From: Sedimentisphaerales bacterium
GTDB taxonomy: Bacteria; Planctomycetota; Phycisphaerae; Sedimentisphaerales; SM23-30
NCBI GenBank assembly: GCA_963663965.2
Contig: CAXXFK010000011.1
Span: 199,667-263,666 of the forward strand
DNA: 64,000 bases
Reading direction: 5' to 3'
Shown: positions 29,827 to 62,450 of the stretch, piece by piece
Position numbering within the stretch: position 1 is the first letter of the stretch
How the letters are laid out: each line of letters starts with the position of its first letter
Notes under the pieces: model-generated
The model's input: only the letters and a program-made list of their open reading frames with translations
Told to the model about the DNA's origin: nothing
The model's database searches: none
Translations under genes and position numbers: made by a program

Positions 29827-29855
29827 TTGCTTTTAAATAAAACTCGGTCTATAAT
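29827..29855 (+). promoter_or_regulatory. Sigma70 promoter of module copy A
   Basis: TTGCTT-17 bp-TATAAT; same position as the copy B promoter. Confidence 0.7.
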
Positions 29856-29860
29856 ACCAA

Positions 29861-30650
29861 AGTCGCCCTAATAGCCCTCAAACCCCCGGTGTGCCCCACA
29901 CCCAACCAGCCACGCCCGCAGAGATTCTCTGCGCATGGACTGTGGCGCCTTCAAGCGCTTGTGGGTGCTTACCTGGCCTAGGGCTATCTGATGCGGACCA
30001 GACCCAACCAGCCAATTTATTTTGGCTGTTTTAACAATACGAATGAAATGGGATATACAAATATGACACAACCCGACAACCCAGCCATAAAAGGCTTGAA
30101 AAGCCGAAAGTTCCTAGCCGGGGTCCGTAAGGCCCCGGATAACGATGGTAATTTTATTTTAAACCCACGCCTCGCAGAGGCGTACCGACAGGATTTCGCA
30201 CCGGAGGCGAAAAATAAAACCAGCCATAAGCACAGCGAATACCAACATAAAACGTTGAGCGCAGCGAAATCCCGATCTATCGGGAAAGCCAACGATGAAA
30301 ATAATGACCCTAACCTCAACAACCAAATAAGCTTAACAAAAAATAAAAACTCATCCACCTCAAGGTGGATACAAATAATATCTCGAAGAGATCAAAAGTG
30401 CATAGCCCGCCAATTCATTGGCGGGAATACCCGAACCCGAGTTAGAAAATTTTAAACCCACGCCTCGCAGAGGCGTACCGACAGGATATCTCGCAAAAGA
30501 GATAGATAAAACCAACATGAGCGCAGTGAATACCAATGCAAAACGAAACAAACCCAATGCTTAAAATTATTGCCATAACATCAATAAAAAATTGACTTTA
30601 ACGAAACCCGAAACCATCAGGCTAAAACATATAACAATCTTTTAACAGGA
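29861..30650 (+). ncRNA. Putative structured leader/ncRNA of module copy A (5' domain plus ~1.5 tandem units starting at 30158 and 30451)
   Basis: Homologous to 60504-61600; many hairpins with compensatory changes between copies; no conserved ORF. Confidence 0.5.
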
Positions 30651-30660
30651 GGTACCAACC

Positions 30661-31500
30661 ATGTCATCTTCACTACGAAGACTACGCGCCAACCGTCGTA
30701 ACGCTCAGAAATCCACCGGCCCCAAAACCCCCGAAGGCAAGGCCATCTCATCCAGAAATGCCATCAAACACGGCCTCAGCGGCCAGGACCCCGCCCACCT
30801 CATCGTCCCCGGCGAATCCGAACTCACCTACCTCGAGTTCCGCGCCGCATTGCTGCAAGATCTCAAACCCACCACCTATCTCCAGCGCCACATCGCCGAC
30901 CAGATCGTCTCGGCCGCCTGGCGATTGGAACGAATCGGCCGTATCGAAGCCGAACTGATCGACGCCCGCGTTTACCAACTCCGCCTCACCAACGAAGAAA
31001 TCCGCAAAGACACCGTCATCGATCAACCCTTCGCCCACTCCAGCATCTACCTGCCACGCCACAACGAGGTCGGCGCCGCCTTCACCCTCGAAACCCCCGC
31101 TTTCAACTGCCTGGCCCGCTACGAAACCCACCTCAACCGAATCTTCCAGGCCAAACTCAAACTCCTGCAACAGTTGCAATTACAACAAAAACCAAACGAA
31201 CCCAATACCTACCCGCCAGAGTACCCATTTCCCGACCTGCCCCGCGTCCACATCCCCGATCCCCCCAGAATCCCCACGCACCCCAGCGAAGCCAAACTCG
31301 CCCCCGAATACATCAAAGACCGACTCCCCGAATTGATGAAAGACCACAGCGTAACTGACGACCAGGTCTTCAGTTACGCCTGCAACCGCTACGAAGCCCT
31401 CAACACGTTTGCGAACCAGAACGGCGAAGAAGCCCTCCACGCCCTCGGCATCCCCACCAAACCACCCGCCGATATCCCCATCCAGGAGAATAAGAAATAA
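30661..31500 (+). CDS. Uncharacterised 279-aa protein with N-terminal NAQKSTGPKTPEGK..NAIKHGL motif (HGGxSTG-like), copy A
   Basis: AACAGGAGG RBS; 9 aa differences from copy B with many synonymous nucleotide changes. Confidence 0.85.
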   Translation: MSSSLRRLRANRRNAQKSTGPKTPEGKAISSRNAIKHGLSGQDPAHLIVPGESELTYLEFRAALLQDLKPTTYLQRHIADQIVSAAWRLERIGRIEAELIDARVYQLRLTNEEIRKDTVIDQPFAHSSIYLPRHNEVGAAFTLETPAFNCLARYETHLNRIFQAKLKLLQQLQLQQKPNEPNTYPPEYPFPDLPRVHIPDPPRIPTHPSEAKLAPEYIKDRLPELMKDHSVTDDQVFSYACNRYEALNTFANQNGEEALHALGIPTKPPADIPIQENKK

Positions 31501-31634
31501 ACTAACTCCAACCACAACAACATGCCTTGATTCGATCGGAATGACAATTCAGTCATAACCAAACAGACTCAGTCTGCCTTCATCCTGTCCAGACACATCT
31601 CTCTTCTACCCGTGATTCCCAGCTTTTTTACTGT

Positions 31635-31679
31635 TTCGATTATGACAATTATCACGATTTTTATGATTTTAACGATTAA
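31635..31679. repeat. Degenerate 9-mer tandem repeat (5 units)
   Basis: (G/A)ATT recurs at 31638, 31647, 31656, 31665, 31674. Confidence 0.55.
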
Positions 31680-31817
31680 CAACACTTTAATTCATTAGTA
31701 TGCCTAGAATAAAGAGTGCGTAAGTTTATAAATGTGAGGAATCGAACAAATGGTATTAACGTATTCCAATCGGTATTAAATCATTGTTATGCTTGAACTT
31801 TTTTAAAGGAGACTCAA

Positions 31818-33764
31818 ATGTATAAGTACATACTACTTTTATTGCTTATTCTATCACCGATCCTTATTGCCGAGGATTGCGTGATCCCTGTCCCTGGTGA
31901 TGTCAACGGCGACTGCGTGGTTGATATCAAAGACTTCGAAATCCTTTCCAAAAACTGGCTCAAAGATGGCCGCATGCCAACAGAACTGCCCATCCTGAAA
32001 ATCACGAGTTTAGGTGTATCAGAAGGTCAGGCAGAGGCCCTTGGACAGGCCCTGAAAATCCCATTAAGATACCTGGACAAATCTTCCCCTCTACTTTTCC
32101 TTGATGACGCCGGCTTCCAGAAAGTCCCAACAATTCCTCTGGACGACCCGGAACTGAAAAAACGGCTCATTGCACAATCCGAAGTCGATGGCGAATCCCC
32201 ATTAGCTTTTGACACCATCGATACCAAAGGATTACAGGAAATCGTACCTCCGCCAGACGACTGGGCTCTGAGCCGGGTGCAGGGCGTTCTGAAAGAACTC
32301 AAATTGCTGCCGGTCGAATCATCAGCGGATATCGATCATTCTACCTTTGAAGCGTTTGACCTGGTAGGCCGAACCATCATAGCGCCCGTTATGCTCGATA
32401 CGCGCGTCAACCTTCAGACCACGCTCAATGACATCCCGGTTTTGGGTCCGGGCGAACAACACAGCGTTAGTTTCGATAGTAAGGGCAATGTTACCCAATT
32501 AGTTCTCGCTCGCCGCGGCTTCACTCCCGGCGAAACGGCATTGCTGCTGCCCGCTGTCCAGGCCGCTGCCAAAGTATTTATCAATTCCAACGGCAACTTC
32601 ATTCCCGACAGCGACATCAAGCTCTGCTATTACGCTCCCCCGTTATCCAACAATAAAACCCAGACCCTGATCCCCCATTACGATATCGGCGGAACACTTT
32701 ACGGCCCCGAAGGACAGCAAGCGGCCAAACTCCGTAAACTGGTCCCCGCCATAGACAACTCCGATCTGGTCCCCAGTGTCCAGTTGTTTGCCAGCGCCAA
32801 GGGTAACGTAGTAAACGCTGCCACCGAATACTGGGGCGGTACACCGCCTTATAAATTCCAGTGGTTTTCATCCTCTGTCGATCTGAGTTATATTCCTGAT
32901 GATCAGTCTTCCATTGAATACAACGCCCTGCCCAGGTTGCAAACCGGACCGGAAGTGATCACAGTAAAGCTCACCGATCAAAACGGTGTGACAGTTGAGG
33001 CCAGCCAAACCCTGATTATTTCATTCGATGCGGCCCCCGCTCAAAGCGAACCTGTTTTAGCTAGTCCGGGGCCCACGGAACCTGATTTTGGTGTGGAACG
33101 TGGGGTATCCGACCTGTGCGGCGCCAACCAGAGTGGTTTCGTCAACCGTTTCCTTGCTGAAGGCATCTATAAACGCTTCAACTGGGGCGCCACCACCGCC
33201 TGGGAACAGGACTTTAAAAAGGTTGATGGCGTAACCTATATTGATGAAGCCGATATCGTCTTCTACTGCGGCCATGGCTACGGTGGCGGTTTCACCTTCG
33301 AAACCAATAACGACGATGGTTATCTCACCTACACCGATGCCGTGGGAGCCTGGGGAGGTAAAGACCTTGAATGGCTCACCCTGCTCTCCTGCCAGGTTTT
33401 GAGAGAAACCTATGATAGCAAGAGTTGGGCAACCCGCTGGGGTCCGGCCTTCAATGGTCTGCATCTCCTTTGCGGATTCCAGACCAGCGCCTATGACTGG
33501 CCCAATTTTGGTGGCCGGTTTGCGGATTGGACCCTCGGGCGTGATTTTATCATCATTAAACTACCCCCCATCTCCATTCGTTCGGCTTGGTTCCAGGCCA
33601 AAAAAGAAGAACAACCCAGTTCAGTGGAGGCCGTCGTTATGGGCCCCCTCGGGCCCAATAATCTGCTGGGTGGATTCTATGATTATTTCTGGGGCAAAGG
33701 ACCCGTCAGCTGCGATTTACGCGGCTCCTACATTCGTGGTTTCTGGAGGCAGGTCTATAAATAA
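31818..33764 (+). CDS. Secreted DUF6345-like protein with an N-terminal dockerin-like module
   Basis: Signal peptide; GDVNGDCVVDIKDF..NWL; C-terminal DIVFYCGHG, WGGKDLEWLTLLSCQVL, FNGLHLLCGF. Confidence 0.7.
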   Translation: MYKYILLLLLILSPILIAEDCVIPVPGDVNGDCVVDIKDFEILSKNWLKDGRMPTELPILKITSLGVSEGQAEALGQALKIPLRYLDKSSPLLFLDDAGFQKVPTIPLDDPELKKRLIAQSEVDGESPLAFDTIDTKGLQEIVPPPDDWALSRVQGVLKELKLLPVESSADIDHSTFEAFDLVGRTIIAPVMLDTRVNLQTTLNDIPVLGPGEQHSVSFDSKGNVTQLVLARRGFTPGETALLLPAVQAAAKVFINSNGNFIPDSDIKLCYYAPPLSNNKTQTLIPHYDIGGTLYGPEGQQAAKLRKLVPAIDNSDLVPSVQLFASAKGNVVNAATEYWGGTPPYKFQWFSSSVDLSYIPDDQSSIEYNALPRLQTGPEVITVKLTDQNGVTVEASQTLIISFDAAPAQSEPVLASPGPTEPDFGVERGVSDLCGANQSGFVNRFLAEGIYKRFNWGATTAWEQDFKKVDGVTYIDEADIVFYCGHGYGGGFTFETNNDDGYLTYTDAVGAWGGKDLEWLTLLSCQVLRETYDSKSWATRWGPAFNGLHLLCGFQTSAYDWPNFGGRFADWTLGRDFIIIKLPPISIRSAWFQAKKEEQPSSVEAVVMGPLGPNNLLGGFYDYFWGKGPVSCDLRGSYIRGFWRQVYK

Positions 33765-33798
33765 GCCTCATTAAAAAGGCTTGATTAACGTAGATCAC

Positions 33799-33836
33799 CA
33801 GCGGACCGGCATTTTACCGGTCCGCTGTTTTATTTT
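33799..33836 (+). terminator. Intrinsic terminator
   Basis: 11-bp stem CAGCGGACCGG/CCGGTCCGCTG plus a T tract. Confidence 0.75.
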
Positions 33837-33986
33837 TAGCCCGGATAAAGATGTTGATTTTTAGTCGGTTTTGTGCGATAATACCCGCTTTGATTGCTGC
33901 ATAACACACTAATACAAATATACTTACGCTCATCATTCTTAATTTTTAAATGATGCGGCCCAACATCTAAATGACAAGGATACAGA

Positions 33987-34334
33987 ATGGCTGGATTTGC
34001 AGACTTCGCCAATATTTTAACTAAATTCTCCGACATTCAGAACAACATGAAGGCCATGCAGGAAAAACTCGGCCAGAAAGTGGTTGAAGGTGCCAGCGGC
34101 GGCGGCATGGTCACCGCGAAAATCAATGGCCGGTTCGAAGTACTCGAAATTAAAATCGACCGAGAAGCCGTCGACCCCAACGATCTCGAAATGCTCGAAG
34201 ACCTGGTCAAAGCCGCCGTGAATGCCGCCGTTTTAAAAAACCAGGAAGAAATGAAACAGGAAATGGCCAACGCCACTGCTGGCCTCAATATTCCCGGACT
34301 TTCTGATAAACTAGGCTCCATGCTGGGACTCTGA
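33987..34334 (+). CDS. ybaB: YbaB/EbfC nucleoid-associated protein
   Basis: VEGASGGGMV, DLEMLEDLVKAAVN; adjacent to recR. Confidence 0.93.
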   Translation: MAGFADFANILTKFSDIQNNMKAMQEKLGQKVVEGASGGGMVTAKINGRFEVLEIKIDREAVDPNDLEMLEDLVKAAVNAAVLKNQEEMKQEMANATAGLNIPGLSDKLGSMLGL

Positions 34335-34939
34335 TGAACAAGGCTTATACAGACAGTATTATCAAATTAATGGAAGAATTTGGCAAACTGCCCGGAATCG
34401 GCAAACGAACAGCCGAACGCCTGGCTTACCACATTCTGAAAACTCCCGCTGAAGAAGCCATGAATCTCGCCCGGGCCATTCATGAAGTGAAAACAAAAAT
34501 CAAACACTGTAAACGCTGTTACAATCTCAGCGAACAGGATCTCTGTCGCATCTGCCAGGATACCAATCGGGACCATACCATCATTTGCGTGGTCGAGCAA
34601 CATAAAGACATGATCTGCCTGGAAGAGACGAACCAGTGCCGCTGGGTTTATCATGTCCTCATGGGCCATATCGCTCCCCTGGAAGGCATCTCTCCAGACG
34701 ACCTGACCATTAACGCGCTGATCAAAAGGGTCGACACAGAAGGAATTAAAGAAATTGTAATGGCCACCAATCCCAATCTGGATGGCGATGGCACTGCGCT
34801 TTATATCAGTTCCTTACTCAGTACCAGAAATGTCAAAATCACTCGGTTAGCTAGAGGCCTGCCCAGTGGCGGCAGTATCGAATTCGCTAATAAAAATGTA
34901 TTAATTGACGCCATTAACGGCAGAGTGGCAATGGAATAA
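34334..34939 (+). CDS. recR: Recombination mediator RecR
   Basis: LPGIGKRTAERLA, C4 zinc finger, Toprim ATNPNLDGD, TRLARGLP.G. Confidence 0.96.
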   Translation: MNKAYTDSIIKLMEEFGKLPGIGKRTAERLAYHILKTPAEEAMNLARAIHEVKTKIKHCKRCYNLSEQDLCRICQDTNRDHTIICVVEQHKDMICLEETNQCRWVYHVLMGHIAPLEGISPDDLTINALIKRVDTEGIKEIVMATNPNLDGDGTALYISSLLSTRNVKITRLARGLPSGGSIEFANKNVLIDAINGRVAME

Positions 34940-35163
34940 TCTTGCATATTTATTTAAATAATCGTATAGAATAAAACAACTTAACGATTATAATGCCTGT
35001 ATCGATTAAATCGTATGGCATAATCAGCTAAAGTAATCGCAGACATTTGTAAAAAATTCGGATTATTCAGGGTGGAAATGACTAGTGATAAATAGTAAGA
35101 ATAATTAGTGGCGTTTTAATTAGTTATAATTCAACCTGACTTTAAATTAATAAGAGAATATTC

Positions 35164-36645
35164 ATGAGACTGGACATATCCCAACAGATGAAAATGGATC
35201 AGCGGATGATGCTGGCCCCGAGGATGATCCAGTCCATGGAAATCCTTCAACTTCCCATCCTCGCTCTGCAGGAACGCATCGAACAGGAACTGCTCTCCAA
35301 CCCCACGCTGGAACTCGAAGAACCCAACCTGGATGAAGATGCCGCTTCCGAAACCCAGGTTTCCGATGAAGAAATCCCTTATTCGGAACGGACTCTGACT
35401 CTCAACGAAGATAAAAATAAATCTGAAGACTTCGCCCGGCTGGAAGAACAGGATTATGATTACGCCGACTACATGAATCGGGCTGACTATGTCAGACGCA
35501 CCAACGATGACGGTGAACCGGATCGCAAGCTCGAAGCCATGCAGAACACCGCGGCGCCTGCCCAAACCCTTAATGAATACCTGCATGACCAGTGGTTGCT
35601 GGTTGAATGTGAACCTGTTATTAATCGTATTGGGAAGGCCATAATCGATCTGATTAACGATGATGGCTATCTCTCGATCAATCTGAATGATATCAGGGAT
35701 TTTGTTCAGGAATCTGTCACCGACGATCAACTCGAAGAAGCCTTGGGACTGGTTCAAACACTGGATCCAACCGGAGTTGGCGCTCGCGATCTGACTGAAT
35801 GCATGCTGATGCAGCTTCAGGAACATGAGGGAGAAGATATCAATCTGGCTCGAGATCTGATTTTACGGCACCTGAAGGACATCGAAGGCAACCGTTATCC
35901 ATTAATCGTTAAAAAATCAGGATATTCGATTGAAGAAATCCTGCGAGGCGTCAAGATCATTTCCCGTCTTGATCCCCGCCCCGGTTTACAGTACGGCACG
36001 CCCAATATTAATTATATTATCCCCGATATCATTGTCGAATATGACGAAGACAACGATCTTTATACGGCGCACCTCGCTGACGAAACCGTTCCTACCCTGA
36101 GAATCAATTCCGATTACGCCGGCATGGCCCGCAATCGCCAGATCGACACCAAAACACGGGATTTTCTCAAAAACAATATCCAATCGGCACGCTGGCTCAT
36201 CGAATCAATTCAGCAACGCAAACAAACTCTCTTGAACGTCGTTCAGCAGGTTCTGTTCACCCAGCGTGAGTTCTTCGACAAAGGCGCCCAGGCCCTCAAA
36301 CCCCTGCCCATGGTGGAAGTGGCCGAGAAGCTCGGCATCCATGTGACAACGGTCTCGCGCGCCGTATCCGGAAAATACATGCAAACCCCAACTGGCATTT
36401 ACCCGCTTAAGTTCTTTTTCAGCGGCGGCACCGAAAATGCCTCTGGCGACGCCGTCAGTTGGGATGCGATCAAAGCCAAGTTGCAGGAAATCGTAGACAA
36501 CGAAGACAAAAAAAAACCCTTCAGCGATGATGAACTTGTTGAAGAATTGAAAAAAAATGGCCTCGAAGTAGCCCGCCGCACTGTCGCCAAATACCGTAAT
36601 GTCCTCAAAATCCCCACCGCCCGTCAGCGAAAACAGTTCATTTAA
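35164..36645 (+). CDS. rpoN: RNA polymerase sigma-54 factor
   Basis: Q/L-rich region I, DPTGVGARDL.ECML, RpoN box ARRTVAKYR. Confidence 0.97.
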   Translation: MRLDISQQMKMDQRMMLAPRMIQSMEILQLPILALQERIEQELLSNPTLELEEPNLDEDAASETQVSDEEIPYSERTLTLNEDKNKSEDFARLEEQDYDYADYMNRADYVRRTNDDGEPDRKLEAMQNTAAPAQTLNEYLHDQWLLVECEPVINRIGKAIIDLINDDGYLSINLNDIRDFVQESVTDDQLEEALGLVQTLDPTGVGARDLTECMLMQLQEHEGEDINLARDLILRHLKDIEGNRYPLIVKKSGYSIEEILRGVKIISRLDPRPGLQYGTPNINYIIPDIIVEYDEDNDLYTAHLADETVPTLRINSDYAGMARNRQIDTKTRDFLKNNIQSARWLIESIQQRKQTLLNVVQQVLFTQREFFDKGAQALKPLPMVEVAEKLGIHVTTVSRAVSGKYMQTPTGIYPLKFFFSGGTENASGDAVSWDAIKAKLQEIVDNEDKKKPFSDDELVEELKKNGLEVARRTVAKYRNVLKIPTARQRKQFI

Positions 36646-36758
36646 CACGACCAGCCGGGACTGGCCAATAGAAAATCCCCACATGACCGAAGCCATGTAG
36701 GGATTGATGATTGGACAATATCGATTAAAGAAAATCAAAGCAGGATCGAATTTCGAAA

Positions 36759-38213: not shown

Positions 38214-38231
38214 AACTCCTGTATTGTTATA

Positions 38232-39077
38232 TTAGAGCAAACAATCGATAGCGCCACGTGCGTATCCAACCGACTCAGCCAGACCGGGCAGTGGATTTTT
38301 GCCATCTTTTTCGTATTCAAACGACGCCTTGCCACTGTATTTGATCTGCAACAATGCCTTGAAGACTTTGGGCAAATCGATTACACCTCGTCCCATCTCA
38401 ACGGTCGACCCAGAGCCTTCCGCCTTGCTGACATCCTTCAGATGCAGATCCAGCACCCGCTCCTTATATCTGATTATATCCTCCGCCGGATCAATCCCGC
38501 TTCGCATGGTATGGCCAATGTCCATGCATATGCCAATCCGGCCATCCCGACCGTCAATCTTCTCCATAATGGATTGCGGAGTCGGATACAACTTGTCACC
38601 AGGACCGTGATTATGAATGGCAACCTTAATATTGGTTTCTTTCACTTTTCGTTCCACCAGATCCAGTAATTCATGATTTGGAACACCGATAATGGTTTCG
38701 AAACCGGCCGCTTTCGCGTAATCGAACGCCTGCAAGACTTGCGCTTCATCCTTCATATAGATTACACCGCCACCATAAACATGAATCCCGGCCTCGCCGG
38801 CTTGTTCGATCACTTTCGATATCTGCTCTGGGCGACTTTCCAGCGGTAAATGCATACTCTTAAAAGATATTTCCTTAATCCCCACCTGCTTGGTCATTGC
38901 CAGTGTCTGAGTTAAATCAAAACTCCGGAAAGTATACGAAGCGATACCCAATTCAAAAGGCGCTTTTTTTACTTTTTTATTGGGATTCACCTGAGAGAAC
39001 AACGTTTGATTCAGACTGGCAACCCCCATTGCTGCCATTCCAGTCATTGCGAGAAAATTTCTTCTATTCTGTTTCAT
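38232..39077 (-). CDS. Tat-exported sugar phosphate isomerase/epimerase (xylose-isomerase-like TIM barrel)
   Basis: NRRNFL Tat motif; IHNHGP, DIGH, HLKD, SFEYE. Confidence 0.85.
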   Translation of the reverse strand: MKQNRRNFLAMTGMAAMGVASLNQTLFSQVNPNKKVKKAPFELGIASYTFRSFDLTQTLAMTKQVGIKEISFKSMHLPLESRPEQISKVIEQAGEAGIHVYGGGVIYMKDEAQVLQAFDYAKAAGFETIIGVPNHELLDLVERKVKETNIKVAIHNHGPGDKLYPTPQSIMEKIDGRDGRIGICMDIGHTMRSGIDPAEDIIRYKERVLDLHLKDVSKAEGSGSTVEMGRGVIDLPKVFKALLQIKYSGKASFEYEKDGKNPLPGLAESVGYARGAIDCLL

Positions 39078-39434
39078 ACATTAGTTCCTTATTGAAGTAA
39101 TAGATTTGTTTTCAATCCCGTTATAACTATATAAAGGCCATGAAACAATAAATATTTGAAAAATAATATCTCATGTCTTGAGCAATTATCAACTAATTGG
39201 TATAATATGTCAATCATTATTATGATGTTTGAACAGCTCTCTACGGAAAAACGGCATAAGATATTACACAGTATAAGCTTATAACTGACAATTGCATTGA
39301 TTATTGCATGATTAATTTGTTTTCCGTATCCGCCAAATTCGGCCAAAGAGATAGAAAATTTGACAAAATATAGTATGGCGTTTTTCAGAGGATAATGGTT
39401 TTTTACCCACCAGTCTTAATCAGGAGACAAAATA

Positions 39435-40886: not shown

Positions 40887-40909
40887 TGACGCCTAAATCA
40901 AAATCTCCG

Positions 40910-53223: not shown

Positions 53224-53338
53224 GGTATTTCCTATATACAGCGCGTCTTACCTGTAGCAGACAGCGCCTCCGGCAAAATACTGCCGGAGGCTGCTGTTTT
53301 ACATCCTAAATCAAATCATGTCAACTACTAAGAGTTCG

Positions 53339-55528
53339 TTATTCCAGACAACTGGGATACAGACCACAGTTGAGCCACTCGGAAATTAACGCCGATAAAT
53401 CGGCCAGGTCAACATCGCAGTCATTGTCCAGATCATAAACAGGTTTGGCAAGACACAAATCGCCACCCATCAAACCAGTGTATTCAGCGGCCACATCGAC
53501 AGCCGCCAACGCATAATTATGAACCTTTACCTCATCCAGTGCGCCAATATAAAACTCCGCGGTCGCGTTGGTGGTATTGGTTTTACCAATCAGGAAGTTC
53601 TCATTGGTCTGAACCGCGTGCGGAGCCGGATTATCCGTAGAAGCTTCTAAACCATCGATATAGATTTTGCGAATGTCACCATCGTAGGTTACCACGACCT
53701 GATGCCAGTTGTCGTCTCTCAGGTTAATATGACGTGTGGCGCTGACATCCGCGTCCCACCAGTAATTACGCAACCAGGTGAGATTGTTGTTCAGCGTCAG
53801 CGCGTTGCATGCGTTGCGCGTGCCATAATTACCCCAACCGAGCAAACCGCGATCGCCATTCACGGTGGCGGTCTTGAACCATACGGTCATACTGAATGGA
53901 TAATCGCCTGCCGGAATGTCATTCATGGTGCCATCCGCTTTCATCGTACCCAGAGCGAATCCCCCGTCAAATACCAGGGCCCCGTCGGCCGTACCATCGA
54001 CGCCAACCGCGTAATCAAATGTGGCAGGCGCCGTATAGGTTGGTTCAAGATGATTATTAGAGCCCGACGCGTCAGCCCAGGCCAGATTAGGATCAGAACC
54101 CGTATATTGATCGAGCGGCCAGTATCCAACCAGCCGTTTGATTAATAACTCCGCGGATCGCGTAGTGATCGTACCAACGGAATTGGTCACTTCACAATAA
54201 TAAGTATTCTGATTGGCTAACTGAGCGTTGACGACCACCAGGGTGTCGGTCTGCGTACCGCTGATCGTCTCGCTGTCTGCCAGCGGACCACTGGCGTCAA
54301 ACCATTGATACTCCGCGGGAGTTACGGAGGCGGCGTCAAAGGTGAACGTCGCGCTCTCGCCGGCAAATACATGCTGATCGGATGGCTCACGGACAATAGT
54401 TGGTAACGTTTTGTTCGTTTCGAACATCCAGATCACACCCGGGATATCGTTGGGTTCGGTCGTTTCTGTAACCGACCAGTAATAAATGGAATCTGAATCC
54501 ATGGAGCCTGCCGTCATGCTGGTATCGGTTGTGTCGCCCAGATAAGCGGTCGAAGCCCCGGCAATTACATCATCCAACACTTTGCTGCAATAAACGTTGT
54601 ATCCGGTCGGATTGATTCCCGTACCCGCGTCCCAACTCAATGTCACACCGGATTCACTGGCTATATCCACCGCCCCATCCGCCGGAGTGGGATGCTGCGC
54701 GCGCTCGGCGTAATTATAAAACCGCACCGCGTCCGCATAAGTCGTAGCGACACAGACTTCATCGAACTGGGCCGCTCGTCCCGCTGGATCCACCCAAACG
54801 GCCATTGAGATGCCATCGAAATCCAGATAACCCGGATTCACCAGATCGGGAGATTTTTCCGGCTCGGTATCCAGCGCCGGATTGCGGTGAACGGTAACCT
54901 GGTCCGTCTCCTGACCAAAATCGATCCGAATCACAAACAGTTCGGTATCGGTGCTCGCGGTACCCAGCCAGTTTAAGTGGCGTCCGATGTTGGATGCATC
55001 CTGATTTCGATCCCGAAAAGCGCACACCTGTAAATTGTTACCGCCGATATCATTGCCCACATAAAGAATGGCTCCTCCATCGCCCAGATCATCCCGTTTC
55101 AATTCAAACGCGTAAAAAGGCGAAGTGTAATTCGTTTTCATCAGAAAGCTGATATAGAGTGTCTGACCGGCCTTGCCAATATTGCCATTGTTATTAACGT
55201 AATCGGCAAAAGGCCCATTTGGATCCGTATTGAGAAAACGACCGGCGCGCGAACCATCCCAGGTTGGAATGATCACTTGCATCGAACCGCTGGAATTCTG
55301 ATAAGCCGAATCCGCGCCCGGCCAGATCAGACTGGCTGATTCAACCGTACATTGAGTCGGAGTACCACCCCCGGTCATCCAGGCGCCGCTGAATCCCAGT
55401 GTGGGCGGCGCCTGCCCGATAATGACTCCGGTATCATAACCAAAGCTGTCATACGCGTATACGTCAGATAGCGCCATAGTCCCTAGGCACAAAACCAATG
55501 TCAAGCTAATGAACAGTACAGTTTTCAT
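53339..55528 (-). CDS. Secreted Ig-like/LamG jelly-roll protein with a C-terminal dockerin-like module
   Basis: Signal peptide; YYCEVTNSVG Ig; WHQVVVTYDG..IYIDG..GALDEV LamG; YDLDNDCDVDLADL..EWL. Confidence 0.8.
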   Translation of the reverse strand: MKTVLFISLTLVLCLGTMALSDVYAYDSFGYDTGVIIGQAPPTLGFSGAWMTGGGTPTQCTVESASLIWPGADSAYQNSSGSMQVIIPTWDGSRAGRFLNTDPNGPFADYVNNNGNIGKAGQTLYISFLMKTNYTSPFYAFELKRDDLGDGGAILYVGNDIGGNNLQVCAFRDRNQDASNIGRHLNWLGTASTDTELFVIRIDFGQETDQVTVHRNPALDTEPEKSPDLVNPGYLDFDGISMAVWVDPAGRAAQFDEVCVATTYADAVRFYNYAERAQHPTPADGAVDIASESGVTLSWDAGTGINPTGYNVYCSKVLDDVIAGASTAYLGDTTDTSMTAGSMDSDSIYYWSVTETTEPNDIPGVIWMFETNKTLPTIVREPSDQHVFAGESATFTFDAASVTPAEYQWFDASGPLADSETISGTQTDTLVVVNAQLANQNTYYCEVTNSVGTITTRSAELLIKRLVGYWPLDQYTGSDPNLAWADASGSNNHLEPTYTAPATFDYAVGVDGTADGALVFDGGFALGTMKADGTMNDIPAGDYPFSMTVWFKTATVNGDRGLLGWGNYGTRNACNALTLNNNLTWLRNYWWDADVSATRHINLRDDNWHQVVVTYDGDIRKIYIDGLEASTDNPAPHAVQTNENFLIGKTNTTNATAEFYIGALDEVKVHNYALAAVDVAAEYTGLMGGDLCLAKPVYDLDNDCDVDLADLSALISEWLNCGLYPSCLE

Positions 55529-55955
55529 ATTATTTCTCCATAAAAAAATCCTTTGAGCTTCTTTCGCCGCGACTTCGCATCGACGAAAGATCCGTCAATT
55601 AGTTATAATTAACGACTCATATTTGTTTTGCCTGAATCCTTTGAATTAGTTGTTACTTATACGGCTTACTATTTCTACCACTAACGTTTGAAAAGACCCG
55701 CTTGACTGCAAGTAGAGACGCAATGCTTCGCGTCTTTATTCGTGCGAGCGATCGGATATTTCCATGCCCGATGGGTATAAAGATTGATTCGCTCACCTGG
55801 CGAATCGGATAACACACAATCCTTCCTTGCTATTATGTCGGCTGATCTACACGCCTCTTGCAGTAATCACAATAGACAGTTCACTGGGACTATTCCATAA
55901 CATCACGCTCCTTTCAAACTCCTGCCCCCTCCGTTTCGTCAAATCGAAACCTGAA

Positions 55956-56765
55956 TTATCGTCCGGTTAACGCAAAGCCTGTTCGCCCCCAGATCGCCTT
56001 CACCAGGTTATAGATATCTCGATTGCCATATTGCACTTCCCGCCAGTAGCTGGCGTCATCCGGATTCGGCAGTGCCGCCGCTTTCGTGCCAAACTCTCTC
56101 GTCCGTGGATCTTCCCATAGCCAGGCCTCACTGTGCCCGTCTCCAAATGATAACACCGTCCCCAGACCATGCCGGATCGGCACCGGATCCCACCATCGCT
56201 GCTGCGAATAAAAAATACTGAAGGTGGTTGGCGTGGCAAAGCCCTCATCGATCAATACCATCCGCTCACTGGCCCGCTTCAATTGCGAACGCCGGGTAAT
56301 CACCCAGGATGGATTGGCCCCGGCCGTACCGAATACCCCACTGGCCACCTTCCTGCCATTATCCAGCAACCAGCAGTAACTGTCCGGAAACGAATAGGTC
56401 CGCGCTTCACCCGGCTTGCCGGTCGGGCAGCGATATATATCCAGATTCTGACCGGCATATTTCCACAACGCCCCCCGCCGGATCGCTTCCTCCTGATCCT
56501 CCTGGTTCAGATAATTATCCAGTCCCGTATGATCGACCCACGACCATGAACCCACCGTATGCCCTGAACAGATGTTGTCATCATGATCATCTGCGTACAT
56601 GATCCATACCATCGTCAAACTGCGCACATTATTCAAACAGACCGCCCGTTTCCCCATTTCCCGCGCTTTATTCAAGGCCGGCATCAAAATAGCAACCAGC
56701 AAAGCGATAATTGAAATAACAACCAGCAGTTCAATCAGAGTAAAACCCTTGTATTTCAAACGCAT
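55956..56765 (-). CDS. Prepilin-type N-terminal cleavage/methylation protein (DUF1559/H-X9-DG type)
   Basis: KGFTLIELLVVISIIALLVAILMPAL..ARE, RHGLGTVLSFGDGH; GAGGAGG RBS. Confidence 0.9.
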   Translation of the reverse strand: MRLKYKGFTLIELLVVISIIALLVAILMPALNKAREMGKRAVCLNNVRSLTMVWIMYADDHDDNICSGHTVGSWSWVDHTGLDNYLNQEDQEEAIRRGALWKYAGQNLDIYRCPTGKPGEARTYSFPDSYCWLLDNGRKVASGVFGTAGANPSWVITRRSQLKRASERMVLIDEGFATPTTFSIFYSQQRWWDPVPIRHGLGTVLSFGDGHSEAWLWEDPRTREFGTKAAALPNPDDASYWREVQYGNRDIYNLVKAIWGRTGFALTGR

Positions 56766-57348
56766 CAAACGGGGCCTCCTCGCAAAAAACTGATAAAGAC
56801 ACCTATTTTGGGCAACAATATTGATAACATTGACATCAAATCACCATTTAACATAACATTTGAATTGCTTTATATGTTTTCATATAGTTTACATCACTAT
56901 TCCCATTTAGTCAAATAATATTTTTCATTATACCACCAATTAATCGACCAACCCAATGCCCATCACACCACTTACGCCGTTTGCTTAAAACGCATTATGT
57001 ATTACAATTACAATAGTTTACAATATTTAAACCCACATAAGTGCCAAACAAAAACCAGCCAAACAATCTTAATTCTTGATTAAAATAAACATTTACCCAG
57101 CAATTTAATTTGCCTATCGCCCAACAATATGTTAATATATATGTAAATATTAAACATTGCATTCTCTAATTACTATCCAGCCCGCATAGCATAGGCAAAG
57201 TGTCCATAAGACCAACGAAATTAATAAGTTATAATAGAATCTTTTGCCGGCGTTTCGTTAGGTTTAAATTGCCGGCCAGTTGCCAGGGCAGTATTTTTTA
57301 TAGTTGCCAATTGTATCTTTATGTAAAAAATGTCGAAATAAGTACTAT

Positions 57349-58302
57349 ATGCCAAAAAAACTTTCAACCATAGTAGGTATCGGAGAAGTTCTCTGGGATA
57401 TCTTTGCTGATCAGAAACGATTAGGCGGCGCGCCTGCCAATTTCACTTTCCATTGCCGCCAACTCGGCGGCAACGCCTGCCTGGCCAGCCAAACCGGAAA
57501 CGACCCCCTTGGACACGAGCTACACCAGATCTTAAACAGTAAAGGGATTAACCGGGATTTCATCCCAACCCATCCATCTTTACCCACCGGCACTGTCCAT
57601 GTTCATGTTTCAGAATCTGGCAGCCCCGAATATACCATTGAACCAAATGTCGCCTGGGATTTTCTGCCCTGGTCCTCTCAACTCCAGACCCTGGCCGGCC
57701 ACACCGATGCGGTTTGTTTTGGCTCCCTCGCTCAGCGTAATGCATGCAGTCGCGAAACGATCAGAAACTTTCTCAGTCATACCCCCTCACACTGCCTGAA
57801 AATTTTCGATATCAATCTGCGCCTCCCGTTCCCATCCATGGACATCATTTTAGCGTCATTGGAAATGGCAACCCTTTTCAAGCTAAACGACGAAGAATTA
57901 GCTTACCTGGCCCCCAAACTGAATCTCCACGGTAACCAGACCGAGCTATTGACACAGCTCAAACAAACGTTTAATCTGGATGGCGTCGCCTTAACTCGAG
58001 GCGCCCATGGCAGTATCCTGCTTTATCATGATGCGCTATCGGTCTGCCCGGGAATACCCGCTTCGATTACGGATACCGTCGGTGCCGGCGACGCGTTTAC
58101 CGCGGCCCTGTGCATCGGGATTTTAAAATGCCTCCCGGTTGACACAATCAACGAACTGGCCTGCCGCGTAGGTTCCTATATTTGTACTCAGAGCGGAGCC
58201 ATGGCCCGGCTACCCGATGACCTGATCGCCGGCTTCCATCCGGAACCACAACGTTTGAATACTCATACCAATCCCAATGTGTCTACAATGACACCAAAGT
58301 AA
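57349..58302 (+). CDS. PfkB-family carbohydrate kinase (probable fructokinase)
   Basis: GIGEVLWD, GGAPANF, FDINLR, DTVGAGDAF; located in the GH32 locus. Confidence 0.9.
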   Translation: MPKKLSTIVGIGEVLWDIFADQKRLGGAPANFTFHCRQLGGNACLASQTGNDPLGHELHQILNSKGINRDFIPTHPSLPTGTVHVHVSESGSPEYTIEPNVAWDFLPWSSQLQTLAGHTDAVCFGSLAQRNACSRETIRNFLSHTPSHCLKIFDINLRLPFPSMDIILASLEMATLFKLNDEELAYLAPKLNLHGNQTELLTQLKQTFNLDGVALTRGAHGSILLYHDALSVCPGIPASITDTVGAGDAFTAALCIGILKCLPVDTINELACRVGSYICTQSGAMARLPDDLIAGFHPEPQRLNTHTNPNVSTMTPK

Positions 58303-58341
58303 GATTCCTGTTTATGAAACACAATATGAATCGATGATCTA

Positions 58342-59464
58342 ATGACAACCGAAACCCATAAAGACATAGCGAAATATCGACAGATATACACCAGCGTTCA
58401 CGAGGACATCACCAACGGTCGCTACCATTTCGGCCAGCAGCTCCCCACCGATATGGAACTGGCCGAGCAATTCTCCGCCTCCCGCCCCACCGTTGCCAAG
58501 GCACTCGGCGCCCTCCAGAAACAGGGGCTGGTCGAACGGCGTATCGGTTCCGGTACCTATGTCCGCTACGGCCGCAAAGATCGCCAGCTCCTCAATCTGG
58601 CGCTGCTCATTCCCGGCCTGGGCGAAACCGAAATTTTCGAGTCCATCTGCGGCCACATGGCCCATCTCGCCGAAGAAAAACAGTTCAACCTGGTCTGGAG
58701 CGGCTCCATGGCCGATGATGCCGAAGCCCGCCGGCGCCACATTGAACAACTGGCCGCGCGCTACGTCCAGCAGAAAGTCGACGGCGTCTTCTTCGCCCCG
58801 CTCGAACTCACCTCCGAAAAAGACACTGTCAACGAACATATCGTCTCCCTGTTTGAAAATGCCAGCATCCCCGTCATCCTCATGGACCGCGACATCGCCG
58901 CTTTTCCCAACCGCAGCCCATACGACCTCGTCGGCGTCGACAATTTCCGTATCGGATACCTCATGACCCAACACCTGATTTCTCAGGGCTGCCGGCACAT
59001 CACCTTTGTCGCCCGTCCCTTCTCAGCCCCGACTGTCGACATGAGAATCTGCGGCTACAAGGAAGCGGTTAATCGCATGACCTCAACGACAGATTTCGAT
59101 AATGCCATCGATGTCCACATCGGCAACGTGGATGACACAGCCGGTATCGAAGCCCTCCTCAAGCGCACCCGCCGACTAGGTATCGTTTGCGCCAACGACA
59201 CCCACCGCCGCCCGCCTCATGCAAACCCTCAACCACCTCGGCTGTTCCATCCCCGGCGACGTCGCCGTCGTCGGTATCGACGATGTTAACTACGCCAAAT
59301 ACCTCCAGCCCGCCCTTACCACCTACCGCCAGCCCTGCCAGGCCATCGCCAAAACCGCCATCAACCTCATGCTCTCCCGCATCGACGACAACCAACTCCC
59401 CGAACGCACTGTCTACCTTGATGGTAATCTCATCATCCGAAAATCCTGCGGCGCCACCGGCTGA
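58342..59464 (+). pseudogene. GntR-HTH/LacI-type sugar-binding regulator (AraR-like) with a +1 frameshift (real or assembly error)
   Basis: Removing one C from CCC at 59201-59203 gives CANDTTAARLMQTL..IPGDVAVVGIDD..PALTT, a 373-aa protein. Confidence 0.85.
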
Positions 59465-59617
59465 CACCTTTACCCGATATCTACCAAGCCCTTTACCACT
59501 ATCCATGTAAATAGGGACAGAAACGAATGGCGGTAGCTTAAGCGGCATGGGCATTCCTCCATTGTTCTCTGGTTCCTTTTAAGCTGGGATACGATTTGGA
59601 TTCATGCGTCATAGCTC

Positions 59618-59659
59618 GTGGTTCACCCTCAAGCGTAACGCAGTGTAGCTTGTGGGTGC
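59618..59659 (+). repeat. REP-like palindrome
   Basis: GTGG foot followed by CACCCTCAAGC...GCTTGTGGGTG; lies just upstream of the RAYT-like remnant. Confidence 0.55.
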
Positions 59660-59727
59660 AATAACGCTGCGATCGAAACAGGCGGACAATGGAAGATTGG
59701 CTATGACACGAAACAAGAAACAGACTT

Positions 59728-59868
59728 ATGGAGACGAATAACGGCTATCGTAAGAAACGGCATGCGTTCAATACACCGGGCCATTCGCGTGAGCAGACTT
59801 TCAGTCGCGTGGGCAATTCGTGGCGGCCAATCTGTGATTTGCCCATGTTGTTTATGGATGGACCATGA
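59728..59868 (+). pseudogene. Possible internally deleted remnant of a REP-associated tyrosine transposase (RAYT)
   Basis: 46-aa ORF METNNGYRKKRHAFNTPGHSREQTFS.. resembles the RAYT N-terminus (R...PGH.HELTFSC); no HUH or catalytic Tyr remains. Confidence 0.4.
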
Positions 59869-59928
59869 GAAAGATACATGAGGCTGCCCGACTGTCTATA
59901 ACCACAAGAGTTTCATTGACATTAGAGA

Positions 59929-60112
59929 GGCCCGACGGGCCGGGAGTTTTTAGCCGTGGCCGTGAGGCCTCGGAAAAGGATGACGAGGAAAACAGAGCCC
60001 TGAAGGGGCGAAAGAAGTTTGTTAAAGAGGAACGATTTGATTAAAATATTCTGTTGGCCCTTCGGACCTTACGAATACCATGACCCTGCATTCCGGAGCC
60101 TGACCCTGCCGG
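59929..60112. repeat. Degenerate composite palindromic repeat (GCCC-GAAG-GGC hairpins)
   Basis: GGCCCGACGGGCC..TTAGCC..GCCCTGAAGGGGCG..GGCCCTTCGGACC; related fragment at 21551-21592. Confidence 0.5.
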
Positions 60113-60261
60113 CCAGTTCACCGCCGGCCCCACCCGGAACCACCTACCGCCTGACCGCCATCACCCGCAGCGGCTACCGGCTGTTCCCGGAAAAACCCCG
60201 GCGACCAGCTTTTATGAATCACGGTGAATACTAGTTTAAAGACATTACCCCAAAGATCTCC

Positions 60262-60409
60262 TCCCATATTTCCCATAAATCCCATTATTCCCATCATTCC
60301 CATCATTCCCATCATTCCCAACCCAATTCCACCGCCATATTCACCATAACAACATACATTTCAGTACCTTATACCCACATACGTCCCATCGGTCCCATTT
60401 GTCCCATAT
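60262..60409. repeat. 9-mer tandem repeats
   Basis: TCCCATnnn x7 (60262-60324) and GTCCCATnn x3 (60383-60409). Confidence 0.85.
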
Positions 60410-60469
60410 TTAATCATAACGCAACTTAAATATATTTGTGTTTTTATTACACAATACTATATATTTTAT

Positions 60470-60498
60470 TTGACTATATCGCAACACCAGTCTATAAT
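60470..60498 (+). promoter_or_regulatory. Sigma70 promoter of module copy B
   Basis: TTGACT-17 bp-TATAAT followed by the conserved AGTCGCCC.AATAGCCC. Confidence 0.75.
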
Positions 60499-60503
60499 CC
60501 CAC

Positions 60504-61600
60504 AGTCGCCCCAATAGCCCCAAACCACCCGCCAACCCCCGGCGTGCCCCGCACCCACCCGGCCACGCCCACAGAGCCCTCCTGCGCATTTTTTGGGGTA
60601 GGCTGTGTGCCGGGTGCCACCCTTCAAGCGCAGCTTGTGGGTGGATTCTTCGCCTTGTGAATTCCAATATGAAATCTGGTATCCAACCAGCCAACTTGTC
60701 GTGGCTGTTTTAACAATACGAATAAAATGGAAATCAACTAACTAAAACAACCTGACATGCTGATTGTAAAAGGCCCGAAGGGCCGACGCCGGGGTCGTAA
60801 GGCCCCGGTCAGCGATAGAAGTTTAATTTTTTTAAACCCGCGCCTCTCCGAGGCGTACCGACAGGATTTCGCACCGGAGGCGAAAATTAAAACTAACCAT
60901 GAGCGCAGCGAATACCAACACAAAACGAAACAAACCCAACATGAAAAAATATCGCCCTAACCTCAACCAAGAATTGAGCTTAACAAAAAATAAAAAAATC
61001 ATCCGCCTCAAAGCGGATACAAATAATATCTCGGAGAGATCAAAAGCGCATAGCCCGCCAATTCATTGGCGGGAACACCCGAACCAGCGTAGAAAATTTT
61101 TAAACCCACGCCTCGCAGAGGCGTACCTGCAGGATTTCGCACCGGAGGCGAAAGATAAAACGAACCATGAGCGCAGCGAATACCAACATAAAACGAAACA
61201 AACCCAACATGAAAAAATATCGCCCTAACCTCAACCAAGAATTGAGCTTAACAAAAAATAAAAAACTCATCCGCCTCAAGGCGGATACAAATAATATCTC
61301 GGAGAGATCAAAAGCGCATAGCCCGCCAATTCATTGGCGGGAATACCCGAACCAGCGTAGAAACTTTTAAACCCACGCCTCGCAGAGGCGTACCGACAGG
61401 ATTTCGCACCGGAGGCGAAAGATAAAACCACCATGAGCGCAGCGAATACCAACACAAAACGAAACGAAGCCAATGATGAAAATAATGGCCCTAACCCCAA
61501 CAACGAAACGAGCTTAACAAAAAATAAAAAAATCATCCGCCTTGGGGCGGATACCACAATTTTGCATTTTAAATTCTAAATTTTAAATTTCTAAACAGGA
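60504..61600 (+). ncRNA. Putative structured leader/ncRNA of module copy B
   Basis: 5' domain homologous to copy A, followed by the tandem array. Confidence 0.5.
60831..61554 (+). repeat. Tandem array of ~268-bp units (2.7 copies)
   Basis: Units start TTTAAACCC at 60831, 61099 and 61366 (periods 268 and 267). Confidence 0.95.
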
Positions 61601-61610
61601 GGTACCAACC

Positions 61611-62450
61611 ATGTCATCGTCACTAAGGAGACTCAGAGCCAACCGTCGTAACGCCCAGAAATCCACCGGCCCCAAAACCCCAGAAGGCAAGGCCATCTCA
61701 TCCAAAAACGCCATCAAACACGGCCTCAGCGGCCAGGATCCCGCCCACCTCATCGTCCCCGGCGAATCCGAACTCACCTACCTCGAGTTCCGCGCCGCGC
61801 TGCTGCAAGACCTCAAACCCACCACCTATCTCCAGCGCCACATTGCCGACCAGATCGTCTCGGCCGCCTGGCGCCTTGAACGGATCGGCCGTATCGAAGC
61901 CGAACTGATCGACGCCCGCGTCTATAAACTCCGGCTCACCAACGAAGAAATCCGCAAAGACACCGTCATCGACCAGCCCTTCGCCCACTCCAGCATCTAC
62001 TTACCACGCCACAACGAAGTCGGCACGGCCTTCACCCTCGAAACCCCCGCCTTCAACTGCCTGGCCCGCTACGAAGCCCACCTCAACCGAACCTTCCAGG
62101 CCAATCTTAAGCTCCTGCAAAAGTTGCAGTTACAACAAAAACCAAACGAACCCAATGGATATCCCCCAGAGTACCCATTTCCCGATTTACCCCGCGTCCA
62201 CATCCCCGACCCACCCAGAATCCCCACGCACCCCAGCGAAGCCAAATTGGCCCCCGAATACATCAAAGACCGACTCCCCGAATTGATGAAAGACCACAGC
62301 GTAACTGACGACCAGGTCTTCAGTTACGCCTGCAATCGTTACGAAGCCCTCAACACGTTTGCGAACCAGAACGGCGAAGAAGCCCTCCACGCCCTCGGCA
62401 TCCCCACCAAACCCCCGGCCGACATCCCCATCCAGGAGGTTAAGAAATAA
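61611..62450 (+). CDS. Uncharacterised 279-aa STGPKTPEGK-motif protein, copy B
   Basis: Same AACAGGAGGTACCAACC leader as copy A; ~97% aa identity (9 of 279 differences by eye). Confidence 0.85.
   Translation: MSSSLRRLRANRRNAQKSTGPKTPEGKAISSKNAIKHGLSGQDPAHLIVPGESELTYLEFRAALLQDLKPTTYLQRHIADQIVSAAWRLERIGRIEAELIDARVYKLRLTNEEIRKDTVIDQPFAHSSIYLPRHNEVGTAFTLETPAFNCLARYEAHLNRTFQANLKLLQKLQLQQKPNEPNGYPPEYPFPDLPRVHIPDPPRIPTHPSEAKLAPEYIKDRLPELMKDHSVTDDQVFSYACNRYEALNTFANQNGEEALHALGIPTKPPADIPIQEVKK

Follow-up and report, generated by a model that had tools for sequence, protein, structure and literature searches.

Some described bacterial systems link a protein to a population or an array of repeats. REPINs are described as populations replicated by RAYTs (10.1101/2022.05.22.493013, PMC3337134), with the RAYTs themselves reported as typically occurring in one copy per genome (10.1101/119735), and in type III systems a protein toxin is described as being inhibited by an RNA of multiple repeats (PMC8860590). 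The locus considered here lies in a stretch of 64,000 nucleotides (nt) from a Sedimentisphaerales bacterium (GenBank assembly GCA_963663965.2, contig CAXXFK010000011.1, positions 199,667 to 263,666), called the window throughout. An initial annotation of this DNA had noted two direct copies of a promoter, a leader with a structured repeat array, and a gene for a protein with an STGP motif. Follow-up analysis bore out the pair, with open reading frames (ORFs) of 279 amino acids at 30661-31500 and 61611-62450 on the plus strand, 30,950 bp apart, and revealed it to be part of a much larger population of discrete gene units, in this genome and in distant ones.

The closest analogue appears to be the REPIN/RAYT system. 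As in that system, a protein gene is tied to short hairpin repeats, hundreds of which lie elsewhere in the genome (301 motifs in a Bryobacterales genome, G031), and the association shows long-term persistence with partly vertical inheritance. However, RAYTs are HUH Y1 transposases (PF01797), whereas the present protein has no Y1_Tnp match (scanned for the 2 window proteins and for 65 family members) and is modeled as all-helical. RAYTs are described as single-copy, whereas the unit protein has 26 copies in the genome of the window and 68 matches in G031. Unlike a REPtron, the gene in the genome of the window is not flanked by inverted repeats; an inverted motif is present at some G031 copies.

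The unit and its copies in the genome

The window's own genome (G000; 7.24 Mb in 42 contigs) carries 26 full-length, intact copies of the gene on 20 contigs, with 92-100% amino acid identity, and in addition 2 fragments. The search for further copies that the initial annotation proposed was therefore productive, and the scale of the family had been underestimated. Unit boundaries were defined by comparing every one of the 26 copies with all the others, 4 kb of upstream and 0.4 kb of downstream DNA included. The onset of similarity to at least 10 other copies is abrupt and lies 0.6-1.7 kb before the ATG, or more distantly in copies whose leader is interrupted by an insertion sequence (IS); the similarity ends shortly 3' of the ORF, the downstream flanks being unique in the genome.

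The unit comprises, in this order, an AT-rich 5' end, a sigma70-type promoter, a GC-rich leader start (termed H5), a mosaic of hairpin modules, the 279-amino-acid ORF, and a tail of about 80 nt. Two variants of the 5' end were distinguished. Variant A, AT-rich and about 200 nt long, starts GGTCTTTATAAAACACAGTG... and is found in most copies, including copy 1 of the window (from ~29653), and in most copies it contains a small TGTTGA..TCAACA-type hairpin; variant B is present in few copies, including copy 2 (from ~60102). The -10 box TATAAT and the CC(A/C)AAGTCGCCC that follows it are kept in 23 of the 26 copies, with -35 boxes of the TTGAC(A/T) or TTTGC type, and only 29 such combinations of promoter and leader start exist genome-wide. 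The H5 leader start extends for ~190-330 nt before the variable mosaic of hairpin modules is reached.

The 3' tail is present in most copies and consists of a hairpin and a terminal TGCGCA-like motif. The position of the hairpin is constant and its stem varies between copies (GGATTGA.., ATGAATG.., ACGGA.., GCGAATTGA.., CATCATG..), such that the hairpin covaries, with different stems at the same place. Folding of the tail gave a mean z of -2.48, with z < -1.5 in 17 of 26 copies, compared with -0.07 and 4 of 26 for the flank control. At one unit (contig C11, position 177618), the first ~16 nt (GGCTTTATAAAACACA) are directly duplicated in front of the 5' boundary, which may be a trace of how the unit end is made.

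Selection and exchange among the copies

The ratio of non-synonymous to synonymous substitution rates (dN/dS) averages 0.094 over the 325 pairs formed by the 26 copies, with dS of 0.15-0.43, and is lowest in residues 1-60 (0.033). For the window pair, dN is 0.022 and dS is 0.26. Singleton codon variants comprise 51 synonymous and 36 non-synonymous changes; shared variants comprise 133 and 36, respectively. All four gametes were found for 56% of 8,515 informative site pairs, even at distances below 100 nt. Short segments are thus often exchanged between the copies, with the protein held under strong purifying selection. Taken with the mosaic leaders, this is the pattern of a sequence population inside one genome, and not of a set of recent insertions.

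Leader hairpin modules

An iterated nhmmer search of the genome, with one 268-nt unit as the query, yielded 137 copies of the leader modules, which are of 192 or 268 nt. The commonest form spans positions 1 to ~190 (41 copies), and 19 copies are full length. Modules within 5 kb upstream of an ORF copy number 88 of the 137, and all 88 are co-oriented with the ORF; the other 49 are spread over ~25 other places. Tiling with the modules from copy 2 gave 53 loci in the genome, with a module number that varies between copies. Insertion sequences have split some leaders, whose parts then look like solo arrays, and other solo arrays are followed by unrelated genes or by truncated ORFs and ORF remnants; no second gene family was found behind the solo arrays.

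Each module contains five or six small hairpins. One of these has two compensatory alleles, TTTCGC/GCGAAA and TATCTC/GAGATA, in a proportion of ~52:46, which argues for a pairing constraint, though the change may have been a single event. Hairpin h3, followed by a T-run, resembles a terminator on the minus strand. Since 268 nt is not a multiple of three, ORFs within the leader cannot be a repeated coding unit. Rfam gave no family at threshold in either leader of the window, the sub-threshold matches being to Acido-Lenti-1 (RF01687) only; these are on the minus strand and score 24.7 and 21.8 bits, where the gathering score is 37. The sole Acido-Lenti-1 match above threshold (59928-59973 on the minus strand, 37.6 bits) lies upstream of the unit, and no match to Acido-Lenti-1 was found near 17 acidobacterial homologue loci.

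Insertion sequences were observed within the arrays. A 1,669-bp IS110-like element with a 411-amino-acid ORF lies inside leader arrays at C36:6006-7674 and C3:48498-50166, the two being 99% identical, and a gene for an ISL3-like transposase splits an array on contig C28. The leader arrays may be preferred targets of insertion sequences.

The encoded protein

The two window proteins are identical at 270 of 279 residues, in agreement with the 9 differences first counted. Neither matched any Pfam family at E<=1, nor did 65 family members at E<=0.01, which upholds the earlier statement that transposase, integrase and reverse transcriptase domains are lacking. PHROGs and PADLOC gave no match, and NCBIfam gave sub-threshold rows only. 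An exhaustive HMMER search recovered 22,328 representatives (50% clustering) at E<=0.001, 5,639 of them at E<=1e-10; in a word-indexed search, every one of 1,011 matches was nameless or a "hypothetical protein". The ESM Atlas likewise contributed nameless clusters only, commonest in Acidobacteriota, and no description of the protein family was found in a literature search. It ranks among the larger protein families that carry no annotation.

Homology spans residues ~4-180. In 65 sequences, N14, S18, G20, P21, G26, N33, P70 and W87 are invariant, and the nearly invariant residues include K27, H37, R88, R91, E96 and Y154. The N-terminal motif ANRRNAxKSTGPxTxEGKxxSxxNAxKHG is basic, arginine-rich and almost invariant, and the picture of an undescribed protein with a basic, highly conserved N-terminal motif was thus confirmed by the family alignment and the searches of Pfam, NCBIfam and PHROGs. 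A resemblance of this motif to the HGGxSTG-type domain had also been put forward. A short STGPxTxEGK-like stretch is indeed common to both (residues 17-27 against model positions 28-38 of NF041373), but the score of 10.3 bits (E 0.44) falls below the cut-off of 29 for HGGxSTG members, and no mention of the HGGxSTG domain was found in the literature search. Among longer homologues (20 proteins), fusions are only sporadic and probably spurious.

An AlphaFold2 model (pLDDT 78) is all-helical, with two short N-terminal helices that flank the STGP turn and a long antiparallel pair formed by helices 73-118 and 145-176. Foldseek against the PDB returned nothing at E<=0.001 (best E 1.1), and a profile search of PDB sequences returned nothing below E 0.16. 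We infer that the protein is probably nucleic-acid-binding because a basic, polar and extremely conserved N-terminus is joined to a coiled coil of the oligomerization type.

Distribution of the family in other genomes

A set of 30 genomes was taken as the relatives of G000, with no congener among the genomes searched. Seven of the 30 have 1-3 matches and 23 have none, the completeness of the no-match genomes being 62%-99%. A wider scan of species-representative genomes, in which 8 closer sequences were used as the query, gave 80 loci in Acidobacteriota, Planctomycetota, Verrucomicrobiota, Alphaproteobacteria and Actinomycetota, with several loci per genome common. No conserved neighbour gene recurs across 89 loci. 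Units in other phyla are compact and extend from about -90 to +40 nt around the ORF. Between loci of one genome, the shared DNA usually begins ~90-230 nt before the ORF and ends a few tens of nucleotides past it, at 84-91% identity. Terminal inverted repeats were considered as a family trait and rejected, given that flanking inverted repeats were found at 4 of 71 homologue loci and at 2 in a control of mismatched loci.

The family is multicopy in one Bryobacterales genus, where it is present in 21 of 21 genomes with 3-68 matches each. In G031, the genome with 68 (at E<=1e-20), a 22-nt REP-like hairpin motif occurs 301 times, compared with 0 for the reversed control. Among 100 listed exact sites of this motif, 19 precede a gene match on the same strand by 1-400 nt (~0.17 expected), and another 7 of those 100 lie within 900 nt downstream of a gene match. 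The motif is positioned ~200 nt upstream of many G031 copies, and some copies are bounded by an inverted motif of 18-44 nt (~85 nt at one locus). Solitary motifs and inverted doublets are also scattered in unrelated contexts, like REPs and REPINs. The G031 proteins have a dN/dS of 0.43 over 9 sequences, of which two (L080 and L167) represent the same locus. The motif is numerous in only five of the 21 genomes of the genus (301, 238, 387, 86 and 29), which indicates that the hairpin partner is clade-specific and not obligatory.

Some Planctomycetota homologues have another type of upstream sequence. In seven (L113, L090, L092, L061, L120, L032 and L033), the start codon is preceded by heptamers (AATAGTC/AATAGCC-like) repeated in runs, and in the first five of these a small hairpin, e.g., TAAATCC-GGA-GGATTTA, buries the Shine-Dalgarno sequence. 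The heptamers and the buried Shine-Dalgarno sequence hint at translational control of the family.

Gain and loss at orthologous sites

Three G031 loci were compared with their orthologous sites in relatives, among them the sister genome G043 and the outgroups G047 and G050. At the third locus (G031 C6:164256-164969), the flanks are shared, but the ORF unit between them is absent from G043, G047 and G050. These flanks are 142 nt apart in G047 and G050 and 1,343 nt apart in G031; in G043 the distance is 187 nt, compared with 1090 nt in G031 for the aligned span. Neither gene nor motif is present at the outgroup sites. Gain or loss of units at the species level is evident from this one locus, with junctions that are not clean.

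The two window copies and their surroundings

Copy 1 begins with its variant A 5' end at 29653-29826 (+), starting near CTTTATAAAAC...; this part is common to many other copies, its 5' boundary is visible in the coverage profile, and its first base is uncertain by ~10 nt. A promoter-like site, TTGCTT-17 nt-TATAAT, was read from the sequence at 29827-29855 (+), its -10 box and the following CCAAAGTCGCCC being those kept in 23 of the 26 copies, and an alignment of 24 H5 starts placed the GC-rich leader start at 29856-30150 (+). Between 30151 and 30660 (+) lie ~1.3-1.5 diverged modules, then a Shine-Dalgarno sequence (AGGAGG); the modules are marked by tiling and by direct repeats of 42 nt (30156-30197/30449-30490) and 30 nt (30225-30254/30516-30545), spaced 291-293 nt, and Tandem Repeats Finder reported no array in this leader. 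The ORF, located by genome search and alignment, is followed by a diverged 3' tail (31501-31578, +) with the hairpin ATGAC-AATTCA-GTCAT at 31541-31556, as judged from tail alignment and folding over the 26 copies, the end being inferred from the others.

Copy 2 starts with a variant B 5' end at 60102-60469 (+), and 60102-60489 is 85-91% identical to stretches of contigs C42, C3 and C16 located in front of further copies or arrays. Its promoter-like site, TTGACT-17 nt-TATAAT, occupies 60470-60498 (+) and is supported by a consensus scan (11/12) and by conservation in the family. The leader start follows at 60499-60828 (+) and includes an Acido-Lenti-1-like double hairpin, below threshold with 24.7 bits on the minus strand, at 60771-60808. 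The array at 60829-61554 (+) consists of 2.7 copies of the 268-nt module with 92% matches in Tandem Repeats Finder, and its hairpins and compensatory changes were followed over the 137 modules. Module tiling then defined an AT-rich 56-nt segment with the Shine-Dalgarno sequence (61555-61610, +), directly before the ORF, which was again located by genome search and alignment. The diverged 3' tail (62451-62529, +) has the hairpin GACTGA-N9-TCAGTC at 62491-62511, from tail alignment and folding, with the end again placed from other copies. The 56-nt segment is 94-100% identical in 15 other loci, where it is better kept than the ORF DNA, and could contain a binding site or, as read by eye, a proximal promoter (TTGCAT-16-TAAATT).

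These assignments bear on several statements of the initial annotation. The unit numbers given there, ~1.5 and 2.7, roughly hold for the two leaders, and the lack of terminal inverted repeats was substantiated by a repeat search of the window. The view that similarity starts at the -10 box is true of the window pair only, because the two copies bear different upstream variants: copy 1 shares ~194 nt upstream of its -10 box (29653-29846) with many other copies, and 60102-60489 of copy 2 is common to 3-4 other copies. In the same manner, similarity seemed to stop at the stop codon because the tails of these two copies have diverged, and most copies in fact share the ~80-nt tail beyond the ORF. 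The proposal that each copy keeps its own sigma70 promoter stands for copy 2 and is less secure for copy 1, whose TTGCTT-17-TATAAT was left uncalled by the consensus scan.

The DNA around the two units has features of its own. The intergenic regions upstream of both (29327-29651 and 59514-60100) are a patchwork of other short repeat families that recur at dozens of sites across the genome. Copy 1 has as neighbours a gene for a 648-amino-acid DUF6345 protein (31818-33764, +), whose N-terminus looks dockerin-like by eye, and one for a DUF6057 protein (25213-27159, -), and copy 2 sits between a GntR/LacI-type regulator gene and folP-crcB. A cobalamin riboswitch is located at 21090-21269 (+; 103.7 bits).

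In G000, Acido-Lenti-1, listed in Rfam as a small RNA of unknown function, behaves as a REP does with a RAYT-type transposase. One Y1_Tnp gene (C32:102700-103044, L139) is flanked by inverted Acido-Lenti-1 matches at 102513-102558 (-) and 103103-103148 (+), seen as inverted repeats of 55-61 nt, and a second Y1 gene on C19 (within locus L138, C19:125714-126321) has an Acido-Lenti-1 match 218 nt downstream. The genome also holds four copies of an IS200-like element of ~735 bp with AAAGGGTCAGGAACC-type inverted ends (C22:74080, C11:18156, C30:159552 and C28:556388), which are 91-96% identical, except for one pair within a longer shared stretch (~99.8% over 3.2 kb).

A possible self-contained proliferating unit

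The reading that we prefer, tentatively and at somewhat under an even chance, is that each copy is a self-contained gene unit that proliferates within the genome, a persistent selfish element with a nucleic-acid-binding protein. Several direct observations underlie it: the copy number, the discrete boundaries, the selection and recombination, the linkage and co-orientation of modules and ORF, the wide but patchy occurrence of the family, and, in another genus, one gain/loss polymorphism. A promoter, a long leader rich in hairpins, a single gene and a 3' hairpin tail are all part of each unit, and transcription would run from the distal promoter through the leader. The protein, which is the only one encoded in the unit and is thus by default the best candidate for acting on it, would bind nucleic acid, most likely the hairpins of its own unit as DNA or RNA, and this interaction may underlie the copying of the unit, its retention, or both. 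On this reading the family is old in G000; purifying selection keeps it intact and frequent gene conversion homogenizes it, so that it resembles a resident population of sequences more than an active insertion sequence.

A number of findings weigh against this proposal. No catalytic domain or motif of a known transposase or recombinase was detected in searches of NCBIfam, PHROGs and PADLOC, or of Pfam, where 65 members were scanned, and fold searches yielded generic coiled-coil hairpins only (Foldseek, and a VIA wide search with a best Z of 7.4). There are no near-identical copies (minimum dS 0.15), whereas true IS copies in the same genome are 99% identical; such divergence is atypical of an active mobile element. 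Terminal inverted repeats are lacking at the unit ends in G000, and target duplications were not seen there, though no clean empty site was available for comparison; at the G031 site, the flanks have diverged. Two of the three G031 loci are occupied in the sister G043 as well (flanks ~94-95% identical); for one of these (L115), no empty site was found, G043 being occupied and more distant genomes losing synteny. At the third locus, the "empty" site of G043 still holds REP-like material in another arrangement, for which reason gain and loss are not cleanly separable there.

The hairpins raise further difficulties. Leader array DNA was found in 0 of the 30 relatives, with no modules at the homologue loci of these relatives; the array is thus specific to G000, and the initial idea of a conserved substrate array upstream of homologues is unsupported family-wide, an outcome that the initial annotation itself had named as one that would refute its proposal. 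Across the Bryobacterales genus, numbers of motifs and of genes are only weakly correlated, one genome (G045) having 49 gene matches and 1 motif. As to the strand on which any hairpin may function, C-A mismatches outnumber G-U pairs on the plus strand of the modules (46 vs 17 in five hairpins), and in H5, G-U and A-C are equal at 45 each, without strand asymmetry. In H5, 1 of 34 pairs of the predicted consensus structure covaries in the alignment of 24 starts, so no conserved RNA fold is claimed. The weak points are therefore the absence of a known catalytic signature, the absence of recent copies in G000, and a hairpin partner that is not universal.

A bolder version, which we consider unlikely, would make the STGP-motif coiled-coil protein the active agent of an unrecognized class of bacterial mobile or self-copying elements, a protein that recognizes the hairpins of its own unit, drives copying or a spread resembling gene conversion without known transposase chemistry, and thereby seeds populations of hairpin repeats such as the 268-nt modules and the Bryobacterales REP-like motif. 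That the system would then be a second, independent counterpart of RAYT/REPIN in at least five phyla is to be regarded as improbable to the same degree.

Alternative explanations

A host multigene family is also conceivable, though unlikely in our estimation. The protein would be a cellular, possibly abundant nucleic-acid-associated protein, the gene would have been amplified and gene-converted, and the arrays would be BIME- or BOX-like repeats acting on mRNA stability or insulation. The dN/dS of 0.09 with all 26 copies intact, the heavy gene conversion among them, the occurrence of the family in every genome of one genus, with an orthologous copy common to two species, the abundance of other repeat families in G000 intergenic regions, and the terminator-like h3 and T-run on the minus strand would all be accommodated. 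BIMEs of enterobacteria and BOX elements of pneumococci are mosaic intergenic repeats, and the leader modules resemble them as modular hairpin units of variable order and number. In contrast to BIME and BOX, however, the modules are much longer (192/268 nt), and two thirds of them lie 5' of one gene family, always co-oriented there, a linkage far beyond that of a general intergenic repeat. A cellular role also sits poorly with the patchy presence among relatives (7 of 30), copy numbers from 0 to 68, the lack of synteny and of conserved neighbours, discrete unit boundaries in unrelated contexts, and one orthologous site that is empty.

It is rather unlikely that the units are non-autonomous, hairpin-bounded cargo moved in trans by, e.g., a host Y1 transposase of the IS200/RAYT type, with an ORF product that serves retention, regulation or an unrelated role. 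Transposons that move as single strands have asymmetric ends with subterminal hairpins, and the unit ends are likewise asymmetric with subterminal hairpins. Potential enzymes are at hand, with 11 Y1_Tnp matches in G000 and 4 in G031, and G000 has a classical REPtron, a Y1 gene between inverted Acido-Lenti-1-type repeats; an Acido-Lenti-1-like double hairpin lies inside the leader, and the G031 motif behaves as a REP/REPIN population of solitary copies and inverted doublets. Yet the ends of the IS200-like element of G000 are unlike the unit ends, the best Y1 locus of G031 has no 22-nt motif within 3.3 kb, and the stems of the tail hairpin differ widely between copies, as would hardly be expected of an end recognized by its sequence. 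The ORF is, moreover, under strong purifying selection, for which a separate explanation would be needed. The units are like those of IS200/IS605 and their TnpA-less derivatives in having asymmetric ends and subterminal hairpins without inverted terminal repeats, and like IscB, which has an upstream HEARO/omega RNA, in having a structured non-coding region beside the ORF. Unlike these elements, they have no TnpA, TnpB or IscB domain, no Rfam family at threshold, and no sequence conservation of the tail stems. The transposase domain by which a classical insertion sequence is recognized (DDE, serine, tyrosine or HUH) was not found in the unit protein, for which fold searches indicated coiled coil only.

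Still less probable is an RNA-protein module like a type III toxin-antitoxin system (ToxIN, CptIN, TenpIN), in which units processed from the tandem leader RNA would bind and neutralize or regulate the downstream protein and each unit would be addictive. The layout is similar, with a promoter and tandem structured repeats directly upstream of a protein gene, and the varying unit number, the arginine-rich N-terminus and the purifying selection on each copy would be expected of such a module. In contrast to type III systems, the protein matches no ToxN/AbiQ-type toxin or other PADLOC or Pfam family, no terminator-like site was found on the plus strand between array and ORF, the array is lineage-specific and absent from homologues elsewhere, and the 268/192-nt modules form a mosaic instead of a clean repeat. 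The very high copy number also tells against it, as 26 nearly identical copies would imply complete cross-talk.

A plain segmental duplication or an assembly artefact, which has nothing in its favour beyond the initial pair, is excluded by the spread of the 26 copies over 20 contigs, where their flanks are unique, and by a dS of at least 0.15 for every pair, and the earlier view of a multicopy element is borne out.

Implications

In summary, the finding is real, larger than first described and largely unexplained: a multicopy, hairpin-associated and, on the preferred reading, selfish unit, whose protein belongs to a very large family that lacks annotation and reaches tens of copies per genome. 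If the protein copies or retains its own unit, the family would represent a new kind of intragenomic replicator, and self-copying, if true, would explain part of the hairpin-repeat load in these large soil and aquatic genomes. If it is a host protein instead, a gene of 26-68 copies that is kept uniform by gene conversion would be unusual. On either reading, the units offer a clear case, open to testing, of one small protein paired with defined hairpins.

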